Shown: positions 8,140-57,939, counted from the stretch's first letter. The stretch is DNA of 58,269 bases from a virus (IMGVR_UViG_3300017728_000008:1-58269); one strand, 5' to 3'. Notes: a model not told the origin generated them from the sequence alone. Numbers and translations are program-made.

Positions 8140-9749
8140 TTGTTAGAGGTTTCATAACTACGTGCCATTGTCACGATAGCATTAGTTGATAGTATCGTTA
8201 CGGCAACTGAAACTGCATTTTGCAGAGCCTGTCTTGTTACTTTAACAGGGTCTATAACTCCAAGAGTCATTAAGTATCCGTATTTTTCTTTCTTAACATC
8301 ATAACCGTAATTGTTTCCTTTAACATCATGGTATATAGATTTAAAATCTAAACCTGCGTTATCTAAGATTTGAATTAACGGAGCTGACAAAGATTCAGCT
8401 AAAATTGCTAAAGCAATTTTTTTTGATAAATTTTCTTCTTTATTATATCTAATAGCACAAGATTTGCTATGATTAAATAGTGTTAATCCACCACCGGGCA
8501 ATATACCTTCTTCAAGAGCGGAGCGAACGGCACACACCGCATCATCCACTCTGTCATATAATTCTTTTTGTTCAAGGTCAGTATTCCCTCCTACATATAC
8601 CACTCCAATACCTCCTGTTAAAGAAGCAATTCTTTTGTTAAGAAATTCTTTATCATCTTTTCTTTTAGCTTCTTCAAGTGCTTCTTGTAGTTGGGTTATT
8701 CTATCAACAACCTCTTGGTTAGATTCCTTGTCGTCTTTAACGATGACAGTTGAGTCACGTCCAACTATCACCTTGGAACAATGACCCAAGTCGTTGAACT
8801 TAATCAAACTCAAATCATCGCCTGTCTTTTCGCTAAAATATGTAGCACCTACACTTATTGCAATATCCTGCATAAGCTCGTGTTGCCTGTATCCAAAATC
8901 CGGAGGAACTATGTTACAAATTTTTAATCCATTCTTTACTACGTTTGCAGCTAAGGTGTTTATTACATTGGTAGAGCACGGAGCAATAATTAAAAGTTTC
9001 TTACCCTCTTGTATGATTGGTTTTAATATATTTTCAATTTGAAGTATGTTATTAATCTCTCCATCACATACCAAAACGTAAGTGTCTTCAAGGACACATT
9101 CATCTCTTTTTTGGTCGTTTATAAACAAGCCTGAAGAATATCCTCTTTTTATTTTAATACCTTTTGTTGTTTCGTAATAGGTAGCGGAGGTTTTACTATT
9201 TTCAACAGTAACTACACCATCCTTGCCTACACTCTCATATACATCTGCAATAATGTCCCCAATAGTTTTATCATTGTTGGCTGAGATGACTGCAACATCA
9301 CGCAATCTTTTAGCGTCTAATTTTTTTCCTTTTACTTTTAAATCTTTTGATATCAATTTCGTTATGTCCACTAAATGCCTGAGCACTTCGGTTCTATTAA
9401 CTTTGTCGGTTATTAATTCGGTACCTGCATTAACTAAAGCCTCAGCAAGTACAATAGCCGTGGTAGTCCCATCTCCTGCTGAAGATGCGGTTCTGTCGGC
9501 TGCCTCTTTCATCATTCTAACCGCAAGGTTTTCTACCGGGTCTAATAATGAAATTGATTTCGCTACAGTCACACCATCCTTAGTTACCGTAATTCCATGT
9601 AAGTGTTCGGGTGATTCTATTAACACAGTATTACCTCGTGGTCCAAGTGTGGACTTTACTGCGTTTGCTATTTGTTTTATTCCTTGAATTAATTTGTTTC
9701 TTCCCTCATCGGAGAAATGAAGTTCTTTTGGATTGAATCCTTGTTGCAT
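8136..9749 (-). CDS. groEL: chaperonin GroEL
   Basis: AVKSTLGPRG, VTKDGVTVAK, AGDGTTTA, RVDDAVCA, EEGILPGGG, GVIDPVKVTR; no C-terminal GGM tail. Confidence 0.97.
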   Translation of the reverse strand: MQQGFNPKELHFSDEGRNKLIQGIKQIANAVKSTLGPRGNTVLIESPEHLHGITVTKDGVTVAKSISLLDPVENLAVRMMKEAADRTASSAGDGTTTAIVLAEALVNAGTELITDKVNRTEVLRHLVDITKLISKDLKVKGKKLDAKRLRDVAVISANNDKTIGDIIADVYESVGKDGVVTVENSKTSATYYETTKGIKIKRGYSSGLFINDQKRDECVLEDTYVLVCDGEINNILQIENILKPIIQEGKKLLIIAPCSTNVINTLAANVVKNGLKICNIVPPDFGYRQHELMQDIAISVGATYFSEKTGDDLSLIKFNDLGHCSKVIVGRDSTVIVKDDKESNQEVVDRITQLQEALEEAKRKDDKEFLNKRIASLTGGIGVVYVGGNTDLEQKELYDRVDDAVCAVRSALEEGILPGGGLTLFNHSKSCAIRYNKEENLSKKIALAILAESLSAPLIQILDNAGLDFKSIYHDVKGNNYGYDVKKEKYGYLMTLGVIDPVKVTRQALQNAVSVAVTILSTNAIVTMARSYETSNK

Positions 9750-9773
9750 TTTGAATTGAATTTAATTGTTATG

Positions 9774-9781
9774 CAAAGGTA
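9774..9781 (-). promoter_or_regulatory. Bacteroidota -7 promoter box (TACCTTTG) for groEL
   Basis: TAnnTTTG about 25 bp upstream of the ATG. Confidence 0.6.
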
Positions 9782-9799
9782 ACAAAATAAATTTAAAAC

Positions 9800-9980: not shown

Positions 9981-9986
9981 ATCCAT

Positions 9987-10014
9987 AAAAAAAGAGGACT
10001 TATTGTCCCCTTTT
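9987..10014 (-). terminator. intrinsic terminator
   Basis: AAAAGGGGAC-AATAA-GTCCTCTTTTTTT on the - strand, downstream of 10064-10264. Confidence 0.65.
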
Positions 10015-10317: not shown

Positions 10318-10545
10318 GGGTCCCCCCCCGCCCTACGTGCACGACCCCGCTACCGGAACCGATTTTTTTTGTTGACCGGGGGTTGTGTTTTTCCTGCTGA
10401 GGTTCTGATTTTTTTGACTTTTTTTCTGTACCCTGTTACCCTCCTGTACCGCTCCGCATCCGCTCCGCTACCTGTATTCGTTTGACGTTACCGGTACCCC
10501 TGTTGACCCCTGTCCCCCTGTGTACCTTCCCCTGTTCCACAGGTA
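10318..10545. repeat. GC/pyrimidine-rich non-coding tract with about 7 CCTGT repeats (putative genome terminus/packaging region)
   Basis: Poly-C and poly-T runs; CCTGT near 10432, 10443, 10471, 10499, 10509, 10517, 10531; CCGCTCCGC twice; sits at the divergence of the two arms. Confidence 0.5.
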
Positions 10546-10561
10546 AAGACAAAAGAGAGAA

Positions 10562-10577
10562 GTGTCTTCAAAGACAC
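10562..10577. repeat. 16-bp palindrome GTGTCTTCAAAGACAC, copy 1
   Basis: Exact match; intergenic. Confidence 0.95.
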
Positions 10578-10704
10578 CAAGAGAGTTCTCTTAACGTCCG
10601 GTCGATGAAAATTAAAGCATAATAAAACACAGGGAAAACACAAGAGTTAAACCATTGAACAAGAAAGAAAACAAACTAAAACGAAACAAAATGAAAAAAA
10701 ATAG

Positions 10705-10734
10705 TTGAAAATCAAATATGTTTTACTATATTTG
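10705..10734 (+). promoter_or_regulatory. early promoter (TTG ... TATATTTG)
   Basis: Bacteroidota -33/-7 arrangement upstream of the first early gene. Confidence 0.6.
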
Positions 10735-10784
10735 AACCATTGATGGACAAGAGATGTACATCAGTTAACTTAAATTACATAAAA

Positions 10785-11420
10785 ATGAGAAATTTAATGC
10801 AAATCGAGGAAGACTTTTTAGCTTCCTCATCAGTAAGAACCGACATCAATTTTGGTTCAATTTTTAACTTACAATCATCAGTTGAGACTGCTAAGAAGTC
10901 AAAATTTGAGAATAGCTTGAAGTTATCGAAGTTGGTGGTTGCTTCTTGTGAGTGGTTCAAAAAACCGGAAACAAAAACTTTACTTGAAGACGAAGGTATC
11001 GAATGGACGAACCAAGAAGTATTTTTTAACAGGGTATTTGGATGGCAAAAATCATTTGGTCACAAGATGTTGAAAGCCGGAAAACTTGAGCCGTCAATCA
11101 TTACGAAGTTCAAGAGAGAGTGTACGAGAGCAGAGAACAACGGAGAAGATACGAACCGAAGTATCCAACAATTATTGAAATTCGCTAAACAAGAGGAAAG
11201 CGGAAACGAAGAAGCATCAGTTTCAACAGAGAAAACATTTGTTACGTTCTCAGTTGCTAAGGATGGTTTGAATGGGGACACCGGTTTCTCGATGAGATTA
11301 ACCGAGAGCGGTATCAAAATTAGTGGAGAGTTAGAAAGCGAAATCGTCAACAACAAAATACAGAGTTTATTTGCTGAGATGAAAGTAATGATAGAGAGAA
11401 TTAATCAAGAAAACCAATAA
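10785..11420 (+). CDS. first early gene; hypothetical, possible HTH-like DNA-binding segment
   Basis: Start revised to MRNLMQ after an A-rich leader; FFNRVFGWQKSFGHKMLKAG helix pair. Confidence 0.65.
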   Translation: MRNLMQIEEDFLASSSVRTDINFGSIFNLQSSVETAKKSKFENSLKLSKLVVASCEWFKKPETKTLLEDEGIEWTNQEVFFNRVFGWQKSFGHKMLKAGKLEPSIITKFKRECTRAENNGEDTNRSIQQLLKFAKQEESGNEEASVSTEKTFVTFSVAKDGLNGDTGFSMRLTESGIKISGELESEIVNNKIQSLFAEMKVMIERINQENQ

Positions 11421-11424
11421 CAAC

Positions 11425-11440
11425 GTGTCTTCGAAGACAC
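11425..11440. repeat. 16-bp palindrome, copy 2 (perfect, GTGTCTTCGAAGACAC)
   Basis: Between stop 11420 and ATG 11455. Confidence 0.95.
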
Positions 11441-11454
11441 CTAAAACAAAAAAA

Positions 11455-12459
11455 ATGAGAGATTTATCAAACAACGGAGTTCAGTTCACAACCTTAAACG
11501 ACACCACAAGACGTGGTCAAGTGAGCGGTTATCATTCTAAACCGGACCCAATTTTCAGAACCAAAGCAACCGCTCAAGACGTTAGCGGTTTAAAATCAGT
11601 TGACCGCAAGAACATTAGTTTTGATGGCACAGAGTACGAGAGCAATTTCAGAATTGGTTTCGAAGTAGAGAAAGCACGTCTTCACAGAGGAGCAGTTGAG
11701 GAGTATCCATTATTTTGTGGGTTCGAAACAGATTCTTCTTGTGGTTATGAAGCGGTTACTCACGTTTTACCTTTGGTAGCGAAGTCAATGTGGAGAACGA
11801 AAGTTTTCAACATGTTTCACCAAGCTAAGAAGATAATTGATGACGAGTACTCACCATCAGATGCTTCTTGTGGTGGTCATATGACTATCTCTGCTGAGGG
11901 TATGACCGGAGCTGAGTTGATGAGTAGAATTAGAAAATTCACACCAATCATCTTATCTATATTTCGTAAGAGGTTAACCAACAGATATTGCAATGGCAAT
12001 CCGCAGTTGTTACCAATGGGAGAGGGAGTTATGTCTTCCGGTTCATCGAAGTATGTTGTCTGTAAAGATACCGGTTTCGGTGTCGAGTTCAGAATACCAT
12101 CGAGAATTACATCTGTTAAACAGATGATAAGACGTTACGAGTTAATGTACATCTTGATGGACTTTGCAGTAAACCAACCGGATGCAACAACGAGAAAGTT
12201 TTACAATGCAGTTAAACCAATCCTGTTGAGTATGTACGAGAAAGACGAAGTGAAAGTTGAAAAGCTAATCACGTTAGCAAGAGATTTCGAGAAGTTCGTC
12301 AAGACCGGTAAAGTTGACCATACTACTGCCGGATGGCTCGAGGGGTGGTGGTCAAGTAGAAACTACTCTTTAGGTAAGTACAGAAATTACTACAAGAGAA
12401 ATTTCAGACCGGATAGCGATGTTGTGCTACAATGGAGAGGTTCAAATCGAATGTTCTAA
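11455..12459 (+). CDS. putative amidoligase (COOH-NH2 ligase type 2)
   Basis: IGFEVEK, ETDSSCG-YEAVT, SCGGHMTIS, KY, GVEFRIP motifs; start revised to MRDLSN. Confidence 0.75.
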   Translation: MRDLSNNGVQFTTLNDTTRRGQVSGYHSKPDPIFRTKATAQDVSGLKSVDRKNISFDGTEYESNFRIGFEVEKARLHRGAVEEYPLFCGFETDSSCGYEAVTHVLPLVAKSMWRTKVFNMFHQAKKIIDDEYSPSDASCGGHMTISAEGMTGAELMSRIRKFTPIILSIFRKRLTNRYCNGNPQLLPMGEGVMSSGSSKYVVCKDTGFGVEFRIPSRITSVKQMIRRYELMYILMDFAVNQPDATTRKFYNAVKPILLSMYEKDEVKVEKLITLARDFEKFVKTGKVDHTTAGWLEGWWSSRNYSLGKYRNYYKRNFRPDSDVVLQWRGSNRMF

Positions 12460-12466
12460 TCCACAT

Positions 12467-12494
12467 AGGGTGGTGTCTTCAAAGACACCATCCT
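12467..12494 (+). other. conserved hairpin AGGGTGGTGTCTT-CA-AAGACACCATCCT (contains palindrome copy 3, 12473-12488)
   Basis: 13-bp stem with one G-U pair, 7 nt after the amidoligase stop; identical to 14748-14775. Confidence 0.9.
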
Positions 12495-12544
12495 CTGTCG
12501 AGAGATGAGTGTCTCTCCTGATGAGTCCAAAAGGACGAAACAGA
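12494..12544 (+). ncRNA. type III hammerhead ribozyme HH1; cleavage predicted after GUC (C12499)
   Basis: Stem III UCUGU/ACAGA; stem I GAGAGA-UGAGUG-UCUCUC; core CUGAUGA 12518-12524; stem II GUCC-AAAA-GGAC; GAAA 12537-12540. Fully canonical core. Confidence 0.95.
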
Positions 12545-12564
12545 AACCTTTAAATAAAAATAAA

Positions 12565-12873
12565 ATGAGAAATTTAATTTTAAACAACACAGACATCAAA
12601 GAATACTTTGCTAACAATAGCTTTGATGAGATGCTCGTAACAACAGACTTAAAAGCATTTAACAATTTAGAAAACCACGATGACTTAGATTGGGAAGAAG
12701 TAGTTGAGTTTGGTGTGAAGAAAGTTGTAACGACTCCTTTTGCACACGAATATTCAACAATAGACTACGACAAAATTACTGCAGTATGCATTCGTTTCGA
12801 CAATGGTGTACACGATGACACAGAGATAGTAATAAATCACAACACAGAAGTTGGACCATTTAATAAAAACTAA
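12565..12873 (+). CDS. hypothetical early protein (start revised to MRNLIL)
   Basis: A-rich leader before ATG 12565; the ORF-track start 12505 lies inside the ribozyme. Confidence 0.7.
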   Translation: MRNLILNNTDIKEYFANNSFDEMLVTTDLKAFNNLENHDDLDWEEVVEFGVKKVVTTPFAHEYSTIDYDKITAVCIRFDNGVHDDTEIVINHNTEVGPFNKN

Positions 12874-12877
12874 AACT

Positions 12878-13042
12878 ATGAAAACACCAAAACTTACATT
12901 AGAAAACTTAAACAAGTACGAAGTTCGTTCACTTGTTTATGCTCTCACGAAAGTTGCTAAAGAAACGACCGATGAGTTAACGAGAGACAATGCTTTAAAT
13001 TTATTAACCAAAATACAAAACGTAAAAAGATATGAAAACTAA
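12878..13042 (+). CDS. hypothetical early protein (start revised to MKTPKL)
   Basis: ATG 4 nt after the upstream stop. Confidence 0.6.
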   Translation: MKTPKLTLENLNKYEVRSLVYALTKVAKETTDELTRDNALNLLTKIQNVKRYEN

Positions 13043-13229
13043 AGTAGAATATTTTATCAGTATGAAAAGTTGCTACGGCAATTACACAAGATTCAAAAAG
13101 GAGTTCAATGACGAACGTCACTTTGAAAATTGGTACGACTTTATGTCCAACAAGGGACATAAGATAATCGGAGTAGAAAAAATCAAATCAAACTTAGACA
13201 GGGTAAAAGATAAATTTGGTTATGTCTAA
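13032..13229 (+). CDS. hypothetical early protein
   Basis: 65-aa ORF, packed. Confidence 0.65.
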   Translation: MKTKVEYFISMKSCYGNYTRFKKEFNDERHFENWYDFMSNKGHKIIGVEKIKSNLDRVKDKFGYV

Positions 13230-13246
13230 ATTTTGTCTTACCTTTG
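13215..13246 (+). promoter_or_regulatory. early promoter TTTG-N20-TACCTTTG
   Basis: Full Bacteroidota -33/-7 consensus. Confidence 0.7.
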
Positions 13247-13289
13247 TTTAAATCAATTATTATTTTAACTTAATTATAAAACTATTATT

Positions 13290-13505
13290 ATGAAACTTTC
13301 AAACATTATTCAAAACACAATCCTTTCAATCGTAACATTATTTGTAATCGCATCAAGCGTAAGACTGCTAATTCATATCGCAGTAACTGAGCAATTTGGT
13401 TTGCCTCAGTTCCTCGCATTCGGATTAGTATTCGGCTTCATCGGTTTCTTATACTCTCTTATCATTGGAATCGTAGTGAACGAGTGGAAGTCATCAATGG
13501 CTTAG
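13290..13505 (+). CDS. small two-TM membrane protein
   Basis: Two hydrophobic helices in 71 aa. Confidence 0.7.
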   Translation: MKLSNIIQNTILSIVTLFVIASSVRLLIHIAVTEQFGLPQFLAFGLVFGFIGFLYSLIIGIVVNEWKSSMA

Positions 13506-13514
13506 ACTCTACTA

Positions 13515-13539
13515 AGGGTGGTGTATCTCACACCATCCT
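13515..13539 (+). other. hairpin AGGGTGGTGT-ATCTC-ACACCATCCT (variant cassette hairpin without the palindrome tip)
   Basis: Same 10-bp basal stem as the hairpins at 12467 and 14748. Confidence 0.85.
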
Positions 13540-13587
13540 CGTATCGAGATGTGTATCTCGACTGATGATACCAAAAGGTTGAAACGG
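13539..13587 (+). ncRNA. type III hammerhead ribozyme HH2; cleavage predicted after GUA (A13543)
   Basis: Stem III UCGU/ACGG; stem I UCGAGAU-GUGU-AUCUCGA; CUGAUGA 13562-13568; stem II (U)ACC-AAAA-GGU(U); GAAA 13581-13584. Confidence 0.87.
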
Positions 13588-13599
13588 AAACAGAGTTCG

Positions 13600-13615
13600 G
13601 TGTCTTCAAAGACAC
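13600..13615. repeat. 16-bp palindrome, copy 4 (extended CGG...CCG)
   Basis: Between HH2 and ATG 13635. Confidence 0.95.
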
Positions 13616-13634
13616 CGCTCACAATTCAAACATT

Positions 13635-14741
13635 ATGTGTATAATTATTATCAAACAAAAAGGCAAAGATGTGCCAAGAGAAGTTCTCAAAACATCTTCC
13701 AAAATCAATCCTCACGGATTAGGTATTGTATGGCTCGACACGTTCGAGGTTACATATCACAAGTCAAAAGAGTTCGGTGTGTTGGATAACGACAGACCCT
13801 ACATCGCTCACTTTAGGTATGCTACAATAGGTAAAGTTTGCAAGGCAAACACACACCCATTTGTATGTGGCAGAAATACAGACGAGTTACTAATGATGAA
13901 CGGAACGATTAAAGGTTATGGTAGTCCAACAATGACAGACACCGAAGACCTTGCAATCAAGTTGGGTTCAACACCAAGGCATGGTTGGAAACAATCGCTA
14001 TCTAAATTCGATGCAAGGTTTGTTTCAATCAACAAAAGAACACGTTCGTTTCAAATCTACAACAAGAACCTGTTCACTATTCGGGATGGAGTTTGGTACT
14101 CCAAGAACAATGTACTGCAAGACAATCTTATGGCGGTCTATGGTACATTAAGAAAAGGCGGTAGCAATTACTATCGGCATCTAAAAAACGAAAAGCATTT
14201 AGGCACCGGAAAGACCACAGATAAATACCCTATGGTTTCTAATGGTATACCTTACTTGCTTGAGAAAAGAGGCGAAGGAGACAATGTGGTGGTTGATGTT
14301 TTTAAAGTCAGCGATATGGCGATGAATAAAATAGATATTCTTGAGGGACATCCGGAGTGGTACCGCAGAAAGAAAGTTGACATAAGTTTAAAAGGAAAAG
14401 TATACCCCTGTTGGATATACTTTAACGAGGGTGCAGAGACAATGTGGAACAAACAGAACCACATAGCAGACTACCAAGCGATACGAACGATTAGTTCGTT
14501 TGGCATAAAACGAACGTATGATACGTTTGAAGACCTTGAGACCACGTGGATTGATGATGTACCTACGTGTACTCAATTAGAGTTTGCAGACTTAGAGGTA
14601 GAGGAGTTCAATAAAGAGAACGAGTCCCCGGTCTGTATAGATTGTTGTCACGACTTAGAGTACGATGGTTTTTCTCATTACCATTGTAATGGTTGTGATG
14701 GTTGGTTCTCCTATAACGAAGTGATGCACTTTCAAGGATAG
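13635..14741 (+). CDS. class II glutamine amidotransferase fused to a gamma-glutamylcyclotransferase-like domain and a C-terminal Zn ribbon
   Basis: N-terminal Met-Cys, NPHGLG, AHFRYAT, NTHPF, MNG; then AVYGTLRKG...IDILEG...YRR; CIDC...CNGC. Confidence 0.85.
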   Translation: MCIIIIKQKGKDVPREVLKTSSKINPHGLGIVWLDTFEVTYHKSKEFGVLDNDRPYIAHFRYATIGKVCKANTHPFVCGRNTDELLMMNGTIKGYGSPTMTDTEDLAIKLGSTPRHGWKQSLSKFDARFVSINKRTRSFQIYNKNLFTIRDGVWYSKNNVLQDNLMAVYGTLRKGGSNYYRHLKNEKHLGTGKTTDKYPMVSNGIPYLLEKRGEGDNVVVDVFKVSDMAMNKIDILEGHPEWYRRKKVDISLKGKVYPCWIYFNEGAETMWNKQNHIADYQAIRTISSFGIKRTYDTFEDLETTWIDDVPTCTQLEFADLEVEEFNKENESPVCIDCCHDLEYDGFSHYHCNGCDGWFSYNEVMHFQG

Positions 14742-14747
14742 CCACAA

Positions 14748-14775
14748 AGGGTGGTGTCTTCAAAGACACCATCCT
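14748..14775 (+). other. conserved hairpin (contains palindrome copy 5, 14754-14769)
   Basis: Identical to 12467-12494; 6 nt after stop 14741. Confidence 0.9.
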
Positions 14776-14825
14776 CTGTTCACGGATGTGTGTCCGTGCT
14801 GATGAAGTCAAAAGACAGAAACAGG
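14775..14825 (+). ncRNA. type III hammerhead ribozyme HH3; cleavage predicted after GUU (U14780)
   Basis: Stem III UCUGU/ACAGG; stem I CACGGA-UGUGUG-UCCGUG; CUGAUGA 14799-14805; stem II (A)GUC-AAAA-GAC(A); GAAA 14818-14821. Confidence 0.88.
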
Positions 14826-14847
14826 AACTTAAATTAAAATTAAAATT

Positions 14848-15051
14848 ATGAAAGCAAATGAATTATTAAAATTTTTAAAAAGTGTAGAACAACAAGTACA
14901 AGGTTACGGAAAAACCTTAGAAGACGTTGAAGTAAATTTCAGAAGAACAGATGACTCTGACATTGAACCAACCGACTCTGTAGGTGTAGACTTATTTGAT
15001 GCAGAGTCAAATAAAATTGTAGAAAGTATAGTATTAATGGGTAAATATTAA
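14848..15051 (+). CDS. hypothetical early protein
   Basis: 67 aa, A-rich leader. Confidence 0.7.
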   Translation: MKANELLKFLKSVEQQVQGYGKTLEDVEVNFRRTDDSDIEPTDSVGVDLFDAESNKIVESIVLMGKY

Positions 15052-15070
15052 ATCAATAAAAATTAAAATT

Positions 15071-15382
15071 ATGAAAATAAAAATTCAACAAAGAAGTATC
15101 TACCACAAATTTGCTGAGGTAGAAATATATGTAGACCCTGTCGCATATGAACATTGGAAACTTGACAATGGTAAGTACGCAAGTCTTCAAGAATTTCTCA
15201 ATGAGAACGAAGACTTATATGTAGATAAGATAGACGAGGCAATGGACAAAACAACATACGAGTTTGGCTTTGGTACAGACTCAGATGCTAATTCACATTA
15301 CAATTCTTCTATGAACGAACCTGAATCAGAATCTGAATGGAGATACGAATGTGACGAATTAAAAACCGGAGGGCATTTATAA
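15071..15382 (+). CDS. hypothetical acidic early protein
   Basis: 103 aa, A-rich leader. Confidence 0.7.
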   Translation: MKIKIQQRSIYHKFAEVEIYVDPVAYEHWKLDNGKYASLQEFLNENEDLYVDKIDEAMDKTTYEFGFGTDSDANSHYNSSMNEPESESEWRYECDELKTGGHL

Positions 15383-15383
15383 T

Positions 15384-15734
15384 ATGGAAACAAAAGTAAT
15401 AGTAACAGACGACAAATTTATTTGGTTGGACATTACTGATGTATTGTCAGTCCACCAAAAAAGAGAATCAAAAGAATCGGTATACTCCTCTTGGATGACG
15501 CACACTCTGTATGTTCTGTATGACGATGGAACCGAAGAGACAATAGAAAGTGTAGACGAAATAGATGAAGCCATTAACCTAAAGCTAAGAGTAGCAATCG
15601 AAGTTGGATACCTACCGAAGTACAACGGAACAAGCAAAGGTGTCTTCAAAGACACTTGGTTTCATAAGGCAGACAAAATTCTAAAGAACGGATATTGGTA
15701 TGCAAAGATAAACGATATAAAGTTTGGGAATTAA
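15384..15734 (+). CDS. hypothetical early protein (contains palindrome copy 6, 15640-15655)
   Basis: 116 aa; the palindrome is read as GVFKDT. Confidence 0.7.
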   Translation: METKVIVTDDKFIWLDITDVLSVHQKRESKESVYSSWMTHTLYVLYDDGTEETIESVDEIDEAINLKLRVAIEVGYLPKYNGTSKGVFKDTWFHKADKILKNGYWYAKINDIKFGN

Positions 15735-16974: not shown

Positions 16975-17145
16975 ATGAATTACGAAAACGACAGGTCTAA
17001 TGACCATATTGACGATGAATACAGATACGAAAGTTGGATGCGTCAATTAAACAAGAAAAGCAAAAACACAAAATCAAACTCAGCCAAAAAGGAACTCGAT
17101 GATTTATTTGAAACTTTCGGGAGAATCTTTGGCAACTTAAATTAA
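16975..17145 (+). CDS. hypothetical protein (56 aa)
   Basis: Translated by hand: MNYENDRSNDHIDDEYRYESWMRQL...FGRIFGNLN; fills the gap. Confidence 0.55.
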   Translation: MNYENDRSNDHIDDEYRYESWMRQLNKKSKNTKSNSAKKELDDLFETFGRIFGNLN

Positions 17146-17150
17146 AACAA

Positions 17151-17438
17151 ATGAAAAACTTAGCATTCGATGGGTACGTCAGTAAGGTTTGTGACGTATT
17201 CGATATAACTAAAAAAGAATTATTTACCAAATCAAAACGAAGAGACATTGTAGACGCAAGGCATCTATTATATTTTTTATGTTTTAAAAGACCAATGCAA
17301 ATTCGATACATCCAAGAATATATGGGTAACAAAGGATATAAGGTTGGGCATTCTTCAATCATTCACGGAATCGAACAAGTGGAAGGCAAGATAACAACAG
17401 ACAATGACTATGAACGTGTATTTCAACAACTTGCATAA
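17151..17438 (+). CDS. DnaA C-terminal (domain IV) HTH-like protein
   Basis: VCDVFDITKKELFTKSKRRDIVDARHLLYFLC...HSSIIHG. Confidence 0.8.
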   Translation: MKNLAFDGYVSKVCDVFDITKKELFTKSKRRDIVDARHLLYFLCFKRPMQIRYIQEYMGNKGYKVGHSSIIHGIEQVEGKITTDNDYERVFQQLA

Positions 17439-18386: not shown

Positions 18387-19139
18387 ATGACAAACGAGAT
18401 ACTTGAAAAACTAAAAGACGACAACGAATATTATAATGGTGTCGGACGAAAGTACCTATCGAACTCAGACATAGGTAGCTTATTAAAAAACCCAAAAGAA
18501 TTTGGTGTAAAGAGAGACGACACTCCTGTATTTGCTATGGGAAGATACTTTCATCAATTGTTTCTTGAACCGGACAAAGCAAAGGAATGGGACTTTGTAG
18601 ATGTTTCTTCCCGCAACACCAAGAAATATAAAGAATATGTTGCAGAGTTACAGGCAGATAGTAAAAGACCAAGAGACTTTGCTTTATTGCTAAAAGAAAA
18701 ACGCAATGTAGAATATTGGGTGGAAGCAATGAAAACTAACATAGACTTTTTTGACCGAATATATGCAGACACAAATAGATTTGAAGTTCCGGAAGTAATG
18801 GAACTTGAAGGCGAAATGTGGAAAGGTAAAGCTGATATAGTTGGAGAAGATTATGTATATGATTTAAAAACGACAGGAAACATTAACGACTTTCGTTGGA
18901 ACTTTCGTAAGTATAATTACGATAGTCAAGCATATATATATTCACAATTATTCAGCCGACCTATGATGTTTCTTGTTATAGATAAGACAAGTTATATGAT
19001 GGGTGCCTATACTGTATCTCCTGAATCATTAGAACGAGGCAGACAAAAGGTAGAAAAAGCAGTTGAAGTGTACCGAACATTCTTCGGAGACAATCCGCAA
19101 GAGGATATTAATCAATATTATTTCAATGAAGAGATTTAA
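18387..19139 (+). CDS. RecE/exonuclease VIII-like PD-(D/E)xK nuclease
   Basis: LSNSDI, GRYFH, KGKADIV, VYDLKTT, YDSQAYIY. Confidence 0.85.
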   Translation: MTNEILEKLKDDNEYYNGVGRKYLSNSDIGSLLKNPKEFGVKRDDTPVFAMGRYFHQLFLEPDKAKEWDFVDVSSRNTKKYKEYVAELQADSKRPRDFALLLKEKRNVEYWVEAMKTNIDFFDRIYADTNRFEVPEVMELEGEMWKGKADIVGEDYVYDLKTTGNINDFRWNFRKYNYDSQAYIYSQLFSRPMMFLVIDKTSYMMGAYTVSPESLERGRQKVEKAVEVYRTFFGDNPQEDINQYYFNEEI

Positions 19140-19290
19140 AAAATGGATAGTGTCTTTGAAGACACGTATATTTAACCCTAAACGTATTCACATAGTTGAA
19201 GTTCCAATGGCTTGTGAATCTCGTGCAGAAAAAAGAGTAATCATTTCTGCGACCAAAAAAATATTGGAGCAAATAATAATAATAAATTAA
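19126..19290 (+). CDS. small hypothetical protein (contains palindrome copy 7, 19150-19165)
   Basis: Start revised to MKRFKKW; the palindrome is read as VSLKT. Confidence 0.5.
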   Translation: MKRFKKWIVSLKTRIFNPKRIHIVEVPMACESRAEKRVIISATKKILEQIIIIN

Positions 19291-19292: not shown

Positions 19293-19562
19293 ATGGCAGA
19301 TAATAATGCACAAACAGACAAAATCTTTGCAGACGGCTTTTCATTTAAAAAGCAAGAAAACTCTCCCGACTTTGTAGTTGGTAGAGTATCAGTAAAGTGT
19401 GATGAAGCAGTTTCATTTATGAAAACGCATCAGAAGAATGGTTGGATAAACCTAAACATCAAATACGCTAAGAGCGGTAATCCTTACATGGAACTTGATA
19501 CATGGGAGCCTCCCAAAAAACAAGAGGCAGTAGCAGAAGAAGGAGACGGACTACCCTTTTAA
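19293..19562 (+). CDS. putative single-stranded DNA-binding protein
   Basis: Small beta-rich protein with acidic tail ending DGLPF. Confidence 0.65.
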   Translation: MADNNAQTDKIFADGFSFKKQENSPDFVVGRVSVKCDEAVSFMKTHQKNGWINLNIKYAKSGNPYMELDTWEPPKKQEAVAEEGDGLPF

Positions 19563-19580: not shown

Positions 19581-19609
19581 AGGGGGGACTATAATCCTCC
19601 CTTTTTTTT
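19581..19609 (+). terminator. intrinsic terminator
   Basis: AGGGGGGA-CTATAA-TCCTCCCT followed by a T run. Confidence 0.8.
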
Positions 19610-22428: not shown

Positions 22429-22639
22429 TGATTGCGAGTATCTTAAACAACTTGACGTACTTAAAAATGTAATGTTCAGAACTCAATCTATTAAAACAGG
22501 CAGGGGGAAAAAAGCTAAGTACCACGAGGAATACATATATAATTCAGAAGGAGACAATGAAGTAAGAGAAACAATTTTAAATTCAATCAAACACTACAAA
22601 GAACAATGTTTAAATTCCGAGAATACCAAACAGATATAA
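22394..22639 (+). CDS. hypothetical protein
   Basis: 81-aa ORF in operon. Confidence 0.5.
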   Translation: MVKLLEKTSGYNDCEYLKQLDVLKNVMFRTQSIKTGRGKKAKYHEEYIYNSEGDNEVRETILNSIKHYKEQCLNSENTKQI

Positions 22640-23850
22640 TTGACCAAGCGACAAAAATTTGTAACACACACAGATTTGTTTACCTCACAATGGAGGTAAG
22701 AACAGGAAAGACCTTAACAAGTTTAGGCATAGCAGATAAACTAAAGTGTTCCAATGTTTTGTTTGTAACCAAAAAGAAAGCCATTAGTTCTATTGACTTT
22801 GATTATAAATTACTTAACCCCTCTTTTAAAATTACAATTATTAACTATGAATCTTTGCACAAGGTAGATAGCAAACCAAGTAATAGATTTGATTTTATTG
22901 TGGTTGATGAAGCACATTCTCTTGGTGCATTTCCCAAACCAAGCAAAAGAGCAAAAGATATTAAAACCTTTATTCAAAAAAATAACAATCCCTTTGTTTG
23001 TTTGATGTCGGGAACACCAACACCTGAAAGTTACAGTCAAATGTTTCATCAGGTGTATGGTATTCCTACTAACCCTTTTAAAAAATTTGTTAGCTTCTAT
23101 AAATTTGCACGTCAGTATGTTAATGTTACTCAACGTGTTATAAATTCAATGTACATCAACGACTACTCCAAAGGATTGATTTCTATTTTAGATGAAATGA
23201 AACCTTACACTATTAGCTTTACACAGAAAGAAGCGGGATTCATAAATACCATAGACGAAGAAATAATTATAGTAGAGATGAAGCCAACAACTTATAATGT
23301 TGCTAATAAACTTTCTAAAGACAAAGTAGTAGAAGGCGAGACGCATCTTGTTATGGCGGACACTCCTGCTAAGATGATGCAAAAGCTACACCAAATATAT
23401 TCAGGAACTATTATTTCCGAAAGCGGTACTGCTATTACAATAGATGATTCAAAAGCTACTTACATAAAACAAAAATTTAAAAACAAAAAGATAGCTATCT
23501 TTTATAAATTTAAACAAGAATATAAACTATTAAAAAGTGTCTTTGAAGACACCGTTTGTAACACCATCGAAGAGTTCAGTAACACAGACAAAAGTATTGC
23601 ATTACAAATTGTAAGCGGTCGGGAAGGAATAAGTTTAAAAGAAGCCGAGGCTATTGTTTATTTTAACATAGATTTTTCTGCCACTTCATATTGGCAAAGC
23701 CGTGATAGAATGACAACTAAAGACCGAAGGCATAGCAAGGTTTATTGGGTCTTTGCGAAGAAAGGTATCGAAAAAGAAATATATAAAACCGTCATTAGAA
23801 AAAAGGATTATACGGTAAGACACTTCAAAAGAGATTTATTAACTTTGTAA
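22606..23850 (+). CDS. superfamily 2 (SNF2-like) helicase (contains palindrome copy 8, 23537-23552)
   Basis: FREYQ, VRTGKT, VDEAH, MSGTP, GREGISL, QSRDR. Confidence 0.88.
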   Translation: MFKFREYQTDIIDQATKICNTHRFVYLTMEVRTGKTLTSLGIADKLKCSNVLFVTKKKAISSIDFDYKLLNPSFKITIINYESLHKVDSKPSNRFDFIVVDEAHSLGAFPKPSKRAKDIKTFIQKNNNPFVCLMSGTPTPESYSQMFHQVYGIPTNPFKKFVSFYKFARQYVNVTQRVINSMYINDYSKGLISILDEMKPYTISFTQKEAGFINTIDEEIIIVEMKPTTYNVANKLSKDKVVEGETHLVMADTPAKMMQKLHQIYSGTIISESGTAITIDDSKATYIKQKFKNKKIAIFYKFKQEYKLLKSVFEDTVCNTIEEFSNTDKSIALQIVSGREGISLKEAEAIVYFNIDFSATSYWQSRDRMTTKDRRHSKVYWVFAKKGIEKEIYKTVIRKKDYTVRHFKRDLLTL

Positions 23851-24263: not shown

Positions 24264-24600
24264 CCTTTACTATGAAGTAGATGATTTTTTTGTAAGTAAA
24301 CTAAAAGATTTTCCAAGAAACGTAGGAATAGATATAGCCTCACAGGTAAATGTGTCGTACGAAGACCTACCCACAAGGTCCGGATGGACCCAAACAATAG
24401 GTGGGGTGTGTAACGAAACAAACCCTGCTCTGTTTTTTGAAGTAGAGTATTTGAATCAAGACGAGGAGCCTCCTTTGTTCCTTGATGTAAACCCAATTGA
24501 CTCGGATGATTATCTTGATTACATCCTTGAAAAAAATATATTAAAATCAAAATCAAATGCAAAAAGCCAAACAACTACAAACAAAAGAAGTTTTAGCTAA
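24232..24600 (+). CDS. hypothetical acidic protein
   Basis: 122-aa ORF in operon. Confidence 0.55.
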   Translation: MGVKQRFLEADLYYEVDDFFVSKLKDFPRNVGIDIASQVNVSYEDLPTRSGWTQTIGGVCNETNPALFFEVEYLNQDEEPPLFLDVNPIDSDDYLDYILEKNILKSKSNAKSQTTTNKRSFS

Positions 24601-25078
24601 CATAATAAACCAAACCTTTGACATCAGCATTTCTTCACAATCAAGAAAAAGAGAGCATGTTCAAGGGAGAATGATATATTATAAAATACTTAGAGACTTG
24701 GGGTACGGACTATCATACATTGCAAAAAGCATTGATAAAAACCACGCAACTGTTATACACGGACTAAAACAATTTCAAGATTTATGGGAGGTGGAACCTG
24801 AAGTTAGGTTTGAATACAACTTAATTAGAGACTTGTTCTTTAACCTTGATGTACAGAACACAGAAGATGTATTAAAAAAATCTGCAATCTTTAAACACCT
24901 AAAGTCTTTGGAAAATCAAAATAAAAGTTTAACTTTGGAAGTACAAGCGTTGAAGAATAGTCTAAAAAAAGTACATAGATACAATGATTTAATAGACCTT
25001 CTAAACCAACGCACCTTAAGCAAAGAACAATTAGACAGGACAAGAATTAGATTAAATGCATTTTTAAATGGTCTATAA
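24557..25078 (+). CDS. second DnaA-domain-IV-like protein with a coiled coil
   Basis: SRKREHVQGRMIYYKILR...LSYIAKSIDKNHATVIHG. Confidence 0.75.
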   Translation: MQKAKQLQTKEVLANIINQTFDISISSQSRKREHVQGRMIYYKILRDLGYGLSYIAKSIDKNHATVIHGLKQFQDLWEVEPEVRFEYNLIRDLFFNLDVQNTEDVLKKSAIFKHLKSLENQNKSLTLEVQALKNSLKKVHRYNDLIDLLNQRTLSKEQLDRTRIRLNAFLNGL

Positions 25079-49662: not shown

Positions 49663-49690
49663 AAAAAAAAAGAGGGTAGTTAAACCCTCT
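49663..49690 (-). terminator. intrinsic terminator
   Basis: AGAGGGT-TTAACT-ACCCTCT followed by a T run on the - strand. Confidence 0.8.
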
Positions 49691-49754
49691 CTTCCTATTA
49701 TTATGATTAAAAACCAACACACCTTTCACACGTGTTGAGCCTACAATATACAAA

Positions 49755-50529: not shown

Positions 50530-50564
50530 AAAAGGAGAGGTGTCTTTGAAGACACCTCCCTTTT
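50530..50564 (-). terminator. terminator-like hairpin after the capsid gene, built around palindrome copy 10 (50540-50555)
   Basis: AAAAGGGAGGTGTCTTCAAAGACACCTCTCCTTTT on the - strand. Confidence 0.75.
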
Positions 50565-50574: not shown

Positions 50575-52065
50575 TTAGTCTTCGAAAAGGACGAAGTTGT
50601 TCGCACCCATTGTACAAACACATCTTTCTGATAAGAAGTGTACCTCCATAGCATCTAAGCTACTTGTAGCTGCACCACCTGCAGAACCTGTAATCCAAGT
50701 CTTATATCTTCGGTCTTCAGTTTCTGAAGCTCTATATCTTACGTGTAGATAAGGTCTCTTAGCATTTTTGCCAAGAACTTGGTCGTACACAGATGTAGAA
50801 CCTGCAGGAACAAGAAGTCCATTGATTGAACCGGAACCACCGACACCGGCTGCTCCTACTGCTAAACCACCTCTCATTGTAGGGTCGTTTAAGTATTTCC
50901 AATCAGTTTTATAGAAATCATATCCTCTACGGAATCCTGAGAATCCTAAGTTAAGAGCCATTTCCTCATCGTTGTCAAATAGTCCGTAAGACGTACCACC
51001 TCCACCGTAAGAGTTCTGTGCTGCTAACATATCATCAATAGCGAATCCGAAATCTCTATCTAAGAAGATAACATTTTCTTCAATTGCACCTTGAGCATCA
51101 AGTCTTCCGATGATTGCATCGAAATCTCCTAAAGCGTCAGGTACACCACCTGTCCATAGGTTACCTCTGTTTTGAACAGTATAGAATATACCTTCAGAAC
51201 CTTTGTTACCATAGTCAGGGTTGTCAGCCGGAGTAGCCGCACCTGAACCTGCTTCTGCAGGAACCGCTTCTACCATAGCCGTTTCAAGATAGTCATCAAA
51301 TCTTAAACGAGTTTCGTGTTCAGATTTCATGTACCATAAATAACCACTTGCTCCATTTTCAGTAGTAACTTCTACCCATCCAATTTGAGCCATATCAGAA
51401 CCTGATACTGCGTACTTATCTTTGATAATGATTGGCGAATTTTCAAAGATGAAGTCATCAGATTCTAAAGAACCATTCATACCTACTGTACCTTTTTTAA
51501 ATTCTGAACCATAAATAAAGATTGTCACATCTGCATTACCTGCACCTGTTCCTGCCGTTACAAGACCACCTGCTTCATAGAAAGCGACTGTAGCTTGTAT
51601 TGGAGAAACGGTTAAGTCAACCGCAGTTACGATACCTTTATTTTCACCTGAACCATCATTTTGGTGAACCACAACAGTTTGCCCTTCTCTTAAAGCTATA
51701 CCGCCTTGAGCTGAAAAAGGATTCTGTCCTGTGATTACTTGACCTGCAGGACCTGCAGGGTCATTGATTTGAAATGTTGCAACGTCAGCACCTTGTGCTG
51801 CAGCCGTGCCTACTTGAGTATACTTCACGTGAAGTCTACCTTGTTCTGCCCATTTCACTAAATCTGAGTTAGAAGGAAGCTCTGCTCCAACTAATCTTAA
51901 GAACGAACCAATCGTTCTGTTTCCATATCTCTCAAATTCCTTTTCATAAGTATCGGGTAGATACTGATTTAAGAAATCAAAGTTTTGGATGTAGTTTGTT
52001 GCCAACGGCACTTGTTGTGCGGACGGCTGAAGGTCAAAACCGGGACCTGTAAAATTTCCTGCCAT
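50575..52065 (-). CDS. major capsid protein
   Basis: 496 aa after the scaffold and followed by a hairpin terminator; KWAEQGRLH, GYLWY, VHFLSERC; biased codon use. Confidence 0.8.
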   Translation of the reverse strand: MAGNFTGPGFDLQPSAQQVPLATNYIQNFDFLNQYLPDTYEKEFERYGNRTIGSFLRLVGAELPSNSDLVKWAEQGRLHVKYTQVGTAAAQGADVATFQINDPAGPAGQVITGQNPFSAQGGIALREGQTVVVHQNDGSGENKGIVTAVDLTVSPIQATVAFYEAGGLVTAGTGAGNADVTIFIYGSEFKKGTVGMNGSLESDDFIFENSPIIIKDKYAVSGSDMAQIGWVEVTTENGASGYLWYMKSEHETRLRFDDYLETAMVEAVPAEAGSGAATPADNPDYGNKGSEGIFYTVQNRGNLWTGGVPDALGDFDAIIGRLDAQGAIEENVIFLDRDFGFAIDDMLAAQNSYGGGGTSYGLFDNDEEMALNLGFSGFRRGYDFYKTDWKYLNDPTMRGGLAVGAAGVGGSGSINGLLVPAGSTSVYDQVLGKNAKRPYLHVRYRASETEDRRYKTWITGSAGGAATSSLDAMEVHFLSERCVCTMGANNFVLFED

Positions 52066-53251: not shown

Positions 53252-53279
53252 ATAAATAAATTCCGTTCAAATTATTCAC

Positions 53280-55715: not shown

Positions 55716-57139
55716 CTAATTATTTGACTTATATTGCCGGTATTAGTATACCTTGCAAAGTTAATCTTTATTTTTGACTCTTTTTGTTCAGGTTGATATA
55801 GATGTTTTTGACAAGCCATTGCTGCTAATCCGGAACTAATTGATGCATCATACTTAGTTCTATTACTTATATCAAATCTCGCCCAATCTTCTAAGGTACG
55901 ATTAAAGCTAATATTCCCCATATCTCCATTTTCTTGTAGTCCCACATATTTTTCAATATAAGACTCAATAGCGGCAGCGTGTGCTTGTTTAACATCTTCG
56001 CTTGAGTTTGGTATCCCTCCTAATTCTTTTTCTGTCTTAGATAGTTTTATAAATTTTTTATCAGGACGATTCATACATAAACCTCTATATCCTCTATTTT
56101 TAAAATGATATAATAATCTTGGTTTGTTATTTTCAATTAATATTGGCATACCATAAAACACACATGCCATTAAAACATCTTCAAAAAATATTTCAGCAGT
56201 TTGAGGTCTTGCAATATATTCTAAGAAAAATTCATTACTTGGTGCTTCCTCCATACTAAACTTAGTAAGACCGTGTAAAGAACCGTTTGAACCTACTCCT
56301 CCAACAGTTCCGCTTATGTCATAAGAGTCACAACCGAATGCACCAATATGTTCGTTTCCGGGATATTTAATTCCATTTTTACTTAAAATGTTATTTTGCA
56401 AATTTTTATTTGGAACCCAAGTTATAAAAAACCTACCTCTATTGTCAGGTGAGAATATTACTTTACCATCTTTAATTCCATCCACCCAAGAAAATGTACC
56501 TCTACTTACGTGGTGGTCGGTTATCATTGCATCATTGTAATCTATTTGTTGATAGATTTTAGTTAAATTAAATAAAGACTGTTTACTCTCATCTCTAAAT
56601 GCATGAGATTCAGTTCTTGGAAATTGTCTGTAATATTCGTTCAATGCATCAGGGTCTTTTTTTAAAGAATCTACTTCATTCTCCCAATAATTAATCGCAC
56701 CTACTTTGATTAATTCATTATCTATTCCTAATACAGGTTTTTTTGTTTCAAAAACCGGATATCCATAGCGGTCAATAAATCCTTCCATATTCCATTCCAT
56801 TGGGATGAAAAGTGAATACATACCACTTTTAGTTTGACCATTAGCGTTTCTTGTTCTTACATCTGAATCATAGAATAATTGTTTAAAATTATTACCACCT
56901 TTATTTAAAGCATTAGAAGTAGAACCCATCATACACTTTCCAATTATCTTACTACCTAATCTTAAACACGTTTTAGTAACTCTCCAATTATTTAAAATAT
57001 TATTAGGCTTTAACCACTTGCCACTTTCATCGTGCACTAACAATAAAAGTTTTTCCCCATCATAAGAGTTGTCATCAGTATTTTTCCAATCTATAGTTGT
57101 GTCCAACCCTTCTATTTCATCGTCATCAAGATTGTACAT
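55712..57139 (-). CDS. terL: terminase large subunit, C-terminal part (Walker B and nuclease)
   Basis: LLVHDESGKW, MGSTSN, FGCDSYD, ILIENNK, KYDASISSG. Confidence 0.85.
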   Translation of the reverse strand: MYNLDDDEIEGLDTTIDWKNTDDNSYDGEKLLLLVHDESGKWLKPNNILNNWRVTKTCLRLGSKIIGKCMMGSTSNALNKGGNNFKQLFYDSDVRTRNANGQTKSGMYSLFIPMEWNMEGFIDRYGYPVFETKKPVLGIDNELIKVGAINYWENEVDSLKKDPDALNEYYRQFPRTESHAFRDESKQSLFNLTKIYQQIDYNDAMITDHHVSRGTFSWVDGIKDGKVIFSPDNRGRFFITWVPNKNLQNNILSKNGIKYPGNEHIGAFGCDSYDISGTVGGVGSNGSLHGLTKFSMEEAPSNEFFLEYIARPQTAEIFFEDVLMACVFYGMPILIENNKPRLLYHFKNRGYRGLCMNRPDKKFIKLSKTEKELGGIPNSSEDVKQAHAAAIESYIEKYVGLQENGDMGNISFNRTLEDWARFDISNRTKYDASISSGLAAMACQKHLYQPEQKESKIKINFARYTNTGNISQIIR

Positions 57140-57939
57140 ATTTTTTTTGTAATCTTAGACGCAGGAACTCTGTATGCTAATTCAGTTTTAGGCTTATCCA
57201 TTCCATCCATAATAGGTCTAAAGAAAAATGGCAACCTACTATTTATAGGGACAACTTTGTCGGTAAACATTTTTTTAGCATCAGACCCTGTTTTAGACAA
57301 TATACCCACACGTGAATCTTTGACAAGAGTAGCAGTATTAACACACTCAGAAGAAGACATAAAAGAAAAACCTGAACGTCTTATTTTTAAATATATCATT
57401 CCAAAACTTCGATAGTCTGCTTTACAAGCCTCCCAAAAAAGATATAGTATTCTATTAGCTTCTCTATAGTCCGGATATCCTACGTCAATTTGTGTCCATT
57501 GCAAATACATATAGTGAGCACCTGTAATGTATGTGGGTTTTCCATTATTTTTAAACCAATATCCATACTCTCTATAATCAAATTCTTTTTCAATGTAATC
57601 TACCCATGAGTTTTTAAAAGCCTTGGGCATTTCATTCCATTGAAATATAGAGTTTATTTTAGACAAACTTTTAGGTATTGATTTTCTTTCCCAATATTGT
57701 TTGTCTTTATTGTCGTGTCTTTGAAGACACGTGTTTGGGGGTTTGGGTAAAGCTATGATTAATCCATTTATAGAGATGATATCTTGAATCTGACCTGATT
57801 TTGAAATGACTATAACATCATATTTTTCGTTATAACCATATAACCAAGATTTATTTCTGTTTTTAGTTGAAATAACATTCTTAGGTATATAATCTTTAAG
57901 TGATTTATACAATTCGTTATTTAGAGTTTCTTTCTGCAA
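57112..57939 (-). CDS. terL: terminase large subunit, N-terminal part (Walker A); frame break at the A8 run 57141-57148; contains palindrome copy 11 (57715-57730)
   Basis: YITGAHYMYLQW, LKIRRSGFS; one extra A would join both ORFs as KITKKNMYN. Confidence 0.8.
   Translation of the reverse strand: MQKETLNNELYKSLKDYIPKNVISTKNRNKSWLYGYNEKYDVIVISKSGQIQDIISINGLIIALPKPPNTCLQRHDNKDKQYWERKSIPKSLSKINSIFQWNEMPKAFKNSWVDYIEKEFDYREYGYWFKNNGKPTYITGAHYMYLQWTQIDVGYPDYREANRILYLFWEACKADYRSFGMIYLKIRRSGFSFMSSSECVNTATLVKDSRVGILSKTGSDAKKMFTDKVVPINSRLPFFFRPIMDGMDKPKTELAYRVPASKITKKICTILMTMK

Follow-up and report, generated by a model that had tools for sequence, protein, structure and literature searches.

A 16-bp palindrome dispersed over an uncultured phage genome is coupled as an RNA hairpin to hammerhead ribozymes and may punctuate phage messages

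In the early genes of phage T7, RNase III sites are repeated hairpins at which the polycistronic RNA is cut, leaving hairpin 3' ends. The repetitive extragenic palindromes (REP) and bacterial interspersed mosaic elements (BIME) of enterobacteria are transcribed at the 3' ends of cistrons, stabilise the upstream mRNA and are bound as DNA by proteins. Histone mRNA ends in a 3' stem-loop of fixed sequence read by SLBP, with the end cut a few bases downstream, and the stoperators of cluster A mycobacteriophages are asymmetric 13-14-bp sites for the immunity repressor of these temperate phages. Hammerhead ribozymes are also found in phages, where their biological purpose is, to our knowledge, largely unknown. 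Clustered hammerheads flanking phage genes were interpreted as devices for mRNA processing (Perreault et al. 2011, PMC3088659). Here we characterize a 16-bp palindrome dispersed over IMGVR_UViG_3300017728_000008:1-58269, a complete virus record of 58,269 bp that represents a whole 58-kb phage genome (hereafter the window). For its intergenic copies, an RNA hairpin is the best-supported identity, given the covariation of the flanks, a preference for G.U over A.C, the orientation of the loop and the coupling to hammerheads and a terminator. We lean towards the view that the palindrome functions chiefly as a transcribed hairpin (GUGUCU-N4-AGACAC), punctuating polycistronic phage messages.

A motif scan of the window recovered eleven copies with perfect arms (GTGTCTT..AAGACAC) and a twelfth with one mismatch (Table 1), at exactly the places listed in a preliminary description of this DNA. 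Far less than one copy had been estimated to occur there by chance. Shuffled sequences gave an expectation of 0.01-0.02 matches for the 16-mer, and in 100 shuffles the number found in the window was never attained. The centre is CA/TG in ten of the eleven perfect-arm copies (copy 11425 has CG) and six copies are packed within 5.1 kb (10562-15655), both as described before. Copies 10562, 11425, 12473, 13600, 14754 and 50540 are intergenic, and the other six of the 12 are located in open reading frames (ORFs). The non-coding share of the genome is about 6% according to a crude ORF map, and the intergenic excess holds even with 10% assumed non-coding (binomial P 5e-4). A search of open-licence PMC and bioRxiv papers did not find the exact 16-mer.

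Three hammerheads were detected in the window, each preceded by a hairpin. Copies 12473 and 14754 lie 11 nt upstream of a predicted hammerhead cleavage site, and a 112-nt repeat (D3) joins 14742-14853 to the module of hammerhead 1 (12461-12572) with 75% identity. Rfam assigned hammerhead 1 to RF00008 with 47.6 bits (E 2e-7), the gathering score being 48.5, and four of four hammerheads of one relative (G003) matched the same model with 23.8-38.8 bits (E 4e-6 to 0.07). A ribozyme switch, in which the base of the hairpin would trap the 5' strand of stem III, was considered and rejected: in truncated transcripts 1.93 of 4 bases were paired versus 1.89 with a shuffled upstream flank, and the median penalty for imposing stem III is 1.0 kcal/mol.

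IMG/VR was scanned for an exact 18-mer. This returned 19 stretches, and ten of the records were taken whole for comparison. All ten are uncultured and syntenic with the window, with 30-90% protein identity, and each carries 9-17 copies with at most one mismatch, versus none for a reversed-pattern control. One of them (G005) is nearly a duplicate of another (G001) and was excluded from later counts, which brings 11 genomes to 10. Genes of the relatives were mapped with a crude longest-ORF caller; it labelled eight of ten terminase copies intergenic, and the automatic tally of 65/123 intergenic copies thus overstates the intergenic share. Several positions are shared: copies were found in the terminase gene in 10/10 genomes and after the probable capsid gene in eight, as well as upstream of the amidotransferase gene and within the genes of the helicase and of a giant virion protein. 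The distance from the upstream stop codon has a median of 22.5 nt and does not exceed 30 nt in 37 of 64 cases. Megablast against named phages gave no match. The nearest named group, judged by the terminase protein, is Elemovirus of Flavobacterium (50% identity), and no such palindrome family was present in the 50 kb examined of the Elemovirus reference genome.

The association with hammerheads extends across these genomes. A simple hammerhead descriptor gave 35 matches in the 11 genomes, of which nine with irregular stems inside coding sequence were discarded. The 26 kept have full stems and a 17-18-nt stem-loop I; without two G005 duplicates they number 24, including the three of the window. 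The family hairpin precedes 22 of the 24 (20 with at most one mismatch and two with two mismatches), and a different hairpin is present in the other two. RNAalifold and pair counting both recovered the hairpin and the three hammerhead stems from the aligned modules. Of the cells, 94.4% are paired, compared with 76.7% in shuffles. Stem I is 100% paired and all six of its pairs covary, as do 3/4 pairs of stem II and 3/5 of stem III. The core sequences CTGA.GA and GAAA (C3-U4-G5-A6-N7-G8-A9 and G12-A13-A14) and the A15.1-U16.1 pair are invariant in 24/24 aligned copies, and the layout is that of type III, in which stems I and II end in loops and stem III is open. A composite pattern of hairpin plus hammerhead core was then found in 71 IMG/VR stretches, yielding 100 distinct modules, and the pairing of hairpin and hammerhead is present in at least 60 IMG/VR contigs. 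The 16-mer lies 9-12 nt from H17 in 72 of the 100 modules. H17, on which the descriptor placed no filter, is C in 57, A in 37, U in 6 and G in none, and positions 10.1/11.1 form G-C in 70 (hammerhead 1 among this type), U.U in 22, A.A in 7 and G.U in one.

This arrangement resembles that of PMC3088659, where several type III hammerheads between the genes of one phage operon would cut long transcripts to gene-length mRNAs. It differs by an invariant partner hairpin upstream, which also occurs without a ribozyme and within genes, and of which the accessible part of that paper makes no mention. The theta ribozymes (hepatitis delta virus-like; PMC10879173) are likewise small self-cleaving phage ribozymes placed to trim neighbouring RNAs, but, as far as the accessible text goes, they belong to another class and have a tRNA as partner, with no invariant hairpin involved.

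Since the ribozyme fixes the RNA strand, the linked hairpins could be read in one orientation. Among the 100 hammerhead-linked modules the loop is UCAA in 70, UUAA in 21, UCGA in 5 and UUGA in one, and the flank pair -1/+1 is G.U in 44 versus A.C in 4. This strand asymmetry of loop and flank pair places selection on the hairpin in the sense RNA, and the frequent symmetric loop intermediates indicate that the palindrome centre does mutate. Watson-Crick pairs occupy 188/390 flank cells (48%) around intergenic copies, compared with 68/252 (27%) around in-gene copies and 26% at random positions. Two other approaches were abandoned. A wobble test meant to assign the strand at pair 6/11 was uninformative, with U.G about equal to C.A. 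Compensatory arm changes were also sought: C6-G11 is found at eight sites, seven of them in G007, where the counts fit independent change of the halves without coupling.

The hairpin is not restricted to ribozyme modules. After the probable capsid gene, flank pairs of the copy covary and a T-run follows in eight genomes. This copy (50540) is the only one in the window with the features of an intrinsic terminator, the other five intergenic copies being without a T-run; in relatives, copies after the ortholog of 19293-19562 have these features too. In G008 and G009 the 16-mer forms the tip of that terminator, while the window has an unrelated one at the same junction (19581-19602). A further ordinary terminator of the window is located at 49665-49696. 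The junction after the ortholog of 10743-11420 carries a bare hairpin in the window, a hairpin plus hammerhead in G001 and G009, and a hairpin plus tRNA-like minihelix in G002, a genome in which the descriptor detected no hammerhead. In G003, ARAGORN predicted an unusual tRNA of 94 nt that is separated from a palindrome copy by two bases. The tRNA-like minihelices themselves, of about 45 nt, consist of an acceptor-like stem, an AUGGU linker and a T-arm (GGUUCGAnUCC) and lie in the early arms of some relatives (G002 at 1642, 2049, 2972 and 3913, G001 at 56306 and G004 at 24895, in record coordinates; loci L023, L022 and L048). Three are within 40 nt of a palindrome, and ARAGORN does not call them tRNAs.

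In the mechanism proposed here, the intergenic flanks lengthen the hairpin to a 10-13-bp stem starting a few bases after the upstream stop codon. The device directly downstream would make the RNA end: usually a type III hammerhead, in some relatives the tRNA-like minihelix, and a U-run after the probable capsid gene. The upstream message would then end in a stable hairpin and a tail of about 5 nt, with a 2',3'-cyclic phosphate if the hammerhead cleaves. Hairpin ends with short tails are resistant to 3' exonucleases, and the ends proposed here should be protected in the same way. A sequence-specific factor reading the 16-mer would also be needed, because the tip never varies and bare in-gene copies persist. 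Like the T7 sites, these hairpins are repeated between the first genes of an early operon; in T7, however, the hairpins are longer and irregular and a host enzyme cuts them, whereas here the stems are shorter and the ribozyme would supply the cut. The likeness to the histone element lies in the 6-bp stem, the 4-nt loop, the fixed sequence and a cut, here predicted, a few bases downstream, but that system is eukaryotic and its cleavage is performed by a protein-small nuclear ribonucleoprotein machine, where here a cis ribozyme would act. Four features appear to be new: a hairpin of constant sequence as partner of the hammerheads, the same hairpin serving as the tip of a terminator, the exchange of cutting modules at a single junction and the in-gene copies.

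The in-gene copies are translated in different frames in different genes (VFKDT/VFEDT, VSLKT and CLQRH), as stated in the preliminary description. Its proposal that selection acts on the nucleic acid and not on the protein is upheld by the relatives, which keep copies by position and at synonymous sites. In the terminase copy, third-codon positions are invariant at 6/6 sites versus 3/58 in the flanks (10 genomes; Fisher P 1e-6). The helicase gene carries a copy in 9/10 genomes. Depending on the lineage it occupies either of two sites separated by about 10 codons, and these copies were created by substitution, without indel. One or two copies are present in the 3187-aa protein gene of every relative holding it, always in the VSLKT frame and in either orientation, and the G009 ortholog of 19126-19290 keeps its copy with a TTAA centre. 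In the chaperonin, the protein motif CV(F/L)EDT/V is conserved in 10/10 genomes, with a near-palindrome (at most two mismatches) in 5/10. In the aligned hammerhead modules, five of the six pairs of the 16-mer stem depart only in two non-canonical hairpins, and the sixth varies by transitions only. The invariant stem, together with in-gene copies frozen at synonymous sites, implies a sequence-specific reader.

Two of the genes concerned have further features. About 70 nt from copy 31867, the gene of the 3187-aa protein contains a tandem 12-nt repeat (CTTTAGGTTTTG-like, at least 5 units) at 31714-31797. The large terminase of the window is divided into two overlapping ORFs on the minus strand (57939/57630-57112 and 57139-55712), split at a run of eight A (57112-57139). 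In the eight relatives holding the whole gene, the terminase is encoded by one uninterrupted ORF (606-708 aa). The split could be a homopolymer assembly error, a real frameshift or slippage.

More tentatively, the 16-mer may serve as the address of a sequence-specific reader and, with interchangeable cutting modules, make up a genome-wide punctuation code for phage messages. Such a reader would recognise the tip of the RNA hairpin, and perhaps the palindrome in its DNA form as well, and would set the ends and lifetime of messages, the bare in-gene copies marking long genes. Phages would then possess an equivalent of the histone stem-loop/SLBP system, with a ribozyme doing the cutting. A clade of uncultured marine and freshwater phages pairs its hammerheads with the same hairpin, and at single junctions the hammerhead is swapped for a tRNA-like element or a terminator. 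This would offer a concrete function for phage hammerheads, namely making and capping mRNA 3' ends, in a natural design comparable to the ribozyme-plus-hairpin insulators of synthetic biology. The never-varying stem beside covarying stems, with synonymous-site copies in five genes, is a clean signature of a nucleic-acid reader, and a candidate could be fished with the 16-mer as bait.

Several observations weigh against a hairpin acting mainly in the message. Structure alone cannot explain the data, as the 16-mer stem is invariant beside covarying hammerhead stems. Copies in ORFs, 6/12 in the window and about half in relatives, show no flank pairing, and their orientation is mixed (TCAA 22, TTGA 16). 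At the U6-A11 pair, changes to U.G and C.A are about equally common, showing no wobble preference. Copy 10562, which sits between predicted divergent promoters, has no lengthened stem and is perhaps not part of any transcript. The proteins scanned, a subset of the ORFs, included none recognisable as an RNA-binding or RNA-repair protein. Concerning the ribozymes, hammerheads 2 and 3, which have non-standard 10.1/11.1 pairs, were not reported by Rfam in the window; no copy reached the gathering threshold, hammerhead 1 being just below it, and a gathering-level scan of the loci of four relatives gave no match. In PMC3088659, matches mispaired at 10.1/11.1 were discarded unless their activity had been measured. 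The 100 modules are related by descent, and their counts do not represent independent events. Finally, contigs from RNA libraries (X15, X16, X18 and X20) include two short pieces spanning copies 11425 and 13600, a type of sequence that can show neither ends nor strand.

Some of these points would be expected if a dimeric phage protein bound the palindrome and this duplex-DNA site were its main role (as global operator, roadblock or origin-associated site), with a transcribed palindrome secondarily co-opted into terminators and ribozyme modules. A dimeric DNA-binding protein had been among the options of the preliminary description and is a live rival, although we consider a primary DNA role rather unlikely. 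It fits the fixed 6-bp arms and variable central 4 bp, with half-site centres 10 bp apart, and the transitions at position 6/11 in either half, which by our own arithmetic fit independent change in G007. It would also account for in-gene copies frozen at synonymous sites without flank pairing, and for the helicase-gene copy, shifted between lineages as if the site were needed in the region and not at an exact place. A symmetric dimer, however, would be blind to the difference between UCAA and UUGA (70:1) and between G.U and A.C (44:4) in hammerhead-linked copies. A DNA site does not predict covarying flank pairs and leaves the near-obligate siting before ribozymes and a U-run unexplained, and isolated half-sites are not enriched in the window (7 outside full sites versus 10 in a reversed-sequence control). 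A dual role, in RNA and DNA, is possible.

The control region next to copy 10562 is relevant to this rival. The copy adjoins CCCCTGT repeats, ten of which are on the plus strand of the genome, four at 10497-10535. All ten genomes have a comparable C-rich block of short repeats between the chaperonin gene and the rightward arm, with a palindrome copy at its edge, and this iteron-like block may be an origin or a control region. Matches to TAnnTTTG, which we take to be the Bacteroidota -7 promoter box, are intergenic at 2890-2930, 5277-5317, 7199-7242, 9781, 10727, 13239, 15747, 38958, 49659 and 53251, often extended to TTTGTA, and three of them form the repeat family D7. The promoter predictions rest on this motif, which alone is not specific (99 matches versus 89 in a control).

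Four proteins had been put forward as possible binders of the palindrome. Two of them, the products of 17151-17438 and 24557-25078, have a helix-turn-helix (HTH) of the type of DnaA domain IV, and at least one protein of this kind is encoded in every genome, although the long one was not detected in G006 nor the short one in G002. Relatives of 17151-17438 are present in 9/10 genomes. The product of 24557-25078 matched DnaA chains with a profile E of 8e-7, and its structural model (predicted local distance difference test score, pLDDT, 80) superposes on the DnaA DNA-binding domain 3pvp with a template modelling (TM) score of 0.85 and a root-mean-square deviation of 1.3 Å. Nothing was recognised for the other two. 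Neither 7238-7672 nor 10785-11420 has an Atlas family; the structural model of the former is of low confidence (pLDDT 68) and matched no fold, and a PDB profile search for 10743-11420 was empty. ORF 16997-17362 on the minus strand is an artefact opposite the real gene 17151-17438.

Among the particular DNA sites suggested earlier, the stoperator analogy fails on the defining features that could be tested. Stoperators are also tens of near-identical short sites in intergenic gaps and genes, with an orientation bias relative to transcription, but the present element is palindromic instead of asymmetric, its flanks pairing in the RNA, and the proteins scanned did not include any repressor or integrase family. 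The suggestion of an RNA hairpin tag is the best supported of the earlier options for the intergenic copies, and the parS/matS-like organiser and the packaging signal listed with it gained no positive evidence. The 16-mer differs from what we take to be the parS consensus. No ParB family turned up among the proteins scanned, no search aimed at ParB having been made.

A selfish or recombination-driven element (a REP, a miniature inverted-repeat transposable element or a T4-type promoter-stem-loop cassette), homogenised by copying or conversion and marking sites of cassette exchange, is improbable. Some features are in its favour: the terminator after the 19293 ortholog has the 16-mer as its tip in G008/G009 but not in the window, hammerhead 2 follows a hairpin with the outer stem kept and a different tip, and many copies flank variable early genes. 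Orthologous copies are nevertheless identical while neighbouring synonymous sites are largely scrambled, which indicates purifying selection, and in-gene copies arise by substitution without indels. No transposase family, including the REP-associated tyrosine transposase (RAYT) type, was found among the proteins scanned. The palindrome shares with REP/BIME that it is short, conserved in sequence and located at the 3' ends of cistrons; REPs, however, are extragenic, chromosomal and spread by RAYT, whereas half of the copies here lie in frame in genes of a phage. A chromosomal family in the host, for which a motif scan had been proposed, was not observed either: bacterial genome contigs yielded scattered single copies only, among the matches listed.

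The matches listed in that scan include only two contigs with several copies, both phage-like and assigned to metagenome-assembled genomes (MAGs). A 56-kb contig (L066/L095) in a Cytophagales MAG bin has five copies and a 32-kb contig (L118) in a Flavobacteriaceae MAG bin has two, in contexts like those of the window phage. They are probably phage contigs misplaced in host bins and give a weak hint of a Bacteroidota host. Gut Bacteroidales contigs (L072, L102, L120 and L123) carry a single 16-mer in one common conserved context, which is an unrelated conserved element containing the 16-mer by chance.

Still less credible is a role in the DNA as a packaging (pac), replication-priming or origin signal: in 10/10 genomes the terminase gene carries a copy within its 5' portion, and another copy lies beside the iteron-like repeats, but 9-17 identical dispersed sites per genome are ill-suited to a unique pac site or origin, and the strand asymmetry and ribozyme coupling would stay unexplained. 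Phage N4 has hairpin promoters for its virion RNA polymerase, and such a promoter is the least plausible alternative: the stem-loop size is similar and giant virion proteins of 3187 and 2338 aa are encoded, but neither matches any Pfam family, the copies follow stop codons, one with a U-run and some in late or structural genes, and host-type -7 boxes precede the early genes. Mimicry of a tRNA T-arm by the tip (UUCRAA) was rejected, as the loop lacks a base, the closing pair has the opposite orientation and the variants in G010 do not conform.

Table 1. Palindrome copies, associated RNA elements and candidate DNA-binding proteins in the window.
Feature	Position	Strand	Context	Details
Palindrome copy	9082-9097	-	Chaperonin (Cpn60) gene 8136-9749	VLEDT; one mismatch
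Palindrome copy	10562-10577	not assigned	Divergent control region 10497-10577	Directly after four CCCCTGT repeats (10497-10535); no flank pairing
Palindrome copy	11425-11440	+	4 nt past stop of 10743-11420; 14 nt before ATG 11455	CG centre; 6-bp hairpin, -6.7 kcal/mol
Extended hairpin	12467-12494	+	Begins 8 nt after stop 12459	AGGGUG-[copy 12473-12488]-CAUCCU; module minimum free energy -38.7 kcal/mol, z -5.1
Hammerhead 1, type III	12492-12546	+	Next gene ATG 12565	Predicted cleavage after C12499; RF00008
Variant hairpin	13516-13538	+		Outer stem shared with the family hairpin, tip not
Hammerhead 2	~13538-13587	+		Predicted cleavage after A13543; U.U at 10.1/11.1
Canonical palindrome copy	13600-13615	+	Directly after hammerhead 2; 19 nt before ATG 13635	
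Extended hairpin	14748-14775	+		Contains copy 14754-14769
Hammerhead 3	~14773-14825	+	Next gene ATG 14848	Predicted cleavage after U14780; A.A at 10.1/11.1
Palindrome copy	15640-15655	+	ORF 15384-15734, 79 nt before stop	VFKDT; ORF relatives in 4 genomes
Candidate DNA reader	17151-17438	+		95-aa stand-alone DnaA C-terminal HTH; PF08299, 38.2 bits (cut-off 31.5)
Palindrome copy	19150-19165	+	Codons 9-13 of small ORF 19126-19290; 10 nt past stop of exonuclease gene 18387-19139	VSLKT
Palindrome copy	23537-23552	+	SNF2-type helicase gene 22606-23850	VFEDT
Candidate DNA reader	24557-25078	+		DnaA-domain-IV-like HTH and long helix (residues 102-150)
Palindrome copy	31867-31882	-	Acidic linker of 3187-aa virion protein 26072-35635	VSLKT
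Terminator-like hairpin	50530-50564	-		Copy 50540-50555 as tip, then T-run; z -4.85
496-aa virion structural gene	50575-52065		Lies before terminator hairpin 50530-50564	Probable major capsid gene by gene order
Palindrome copy	57715-57730	-	Variable linker, N-terminal part of large terminase	CLQRH; 10/10 genomes

Some genes neighbouring the palindrome copies also deserve mention. A conserved 334-aa protein (11455-12459) has invariant SCGYE, CGGH and EFR motifs and no family match. Two genes downstream, 13635-14741 encodes a class II glutamine amidotransferase fused to a gamma-glutamyl cyclotransferase-like domain, and the pair presumably resembles amidoligase-type peptide-modification systems. 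A small acidic protein (19293-19562), encoded after an exonuclease VIII-like gene and conserved in all relatives, ends in DGLPF, which calls to mind the tails that single-strand DNA-binding proteins have at their C terminus.

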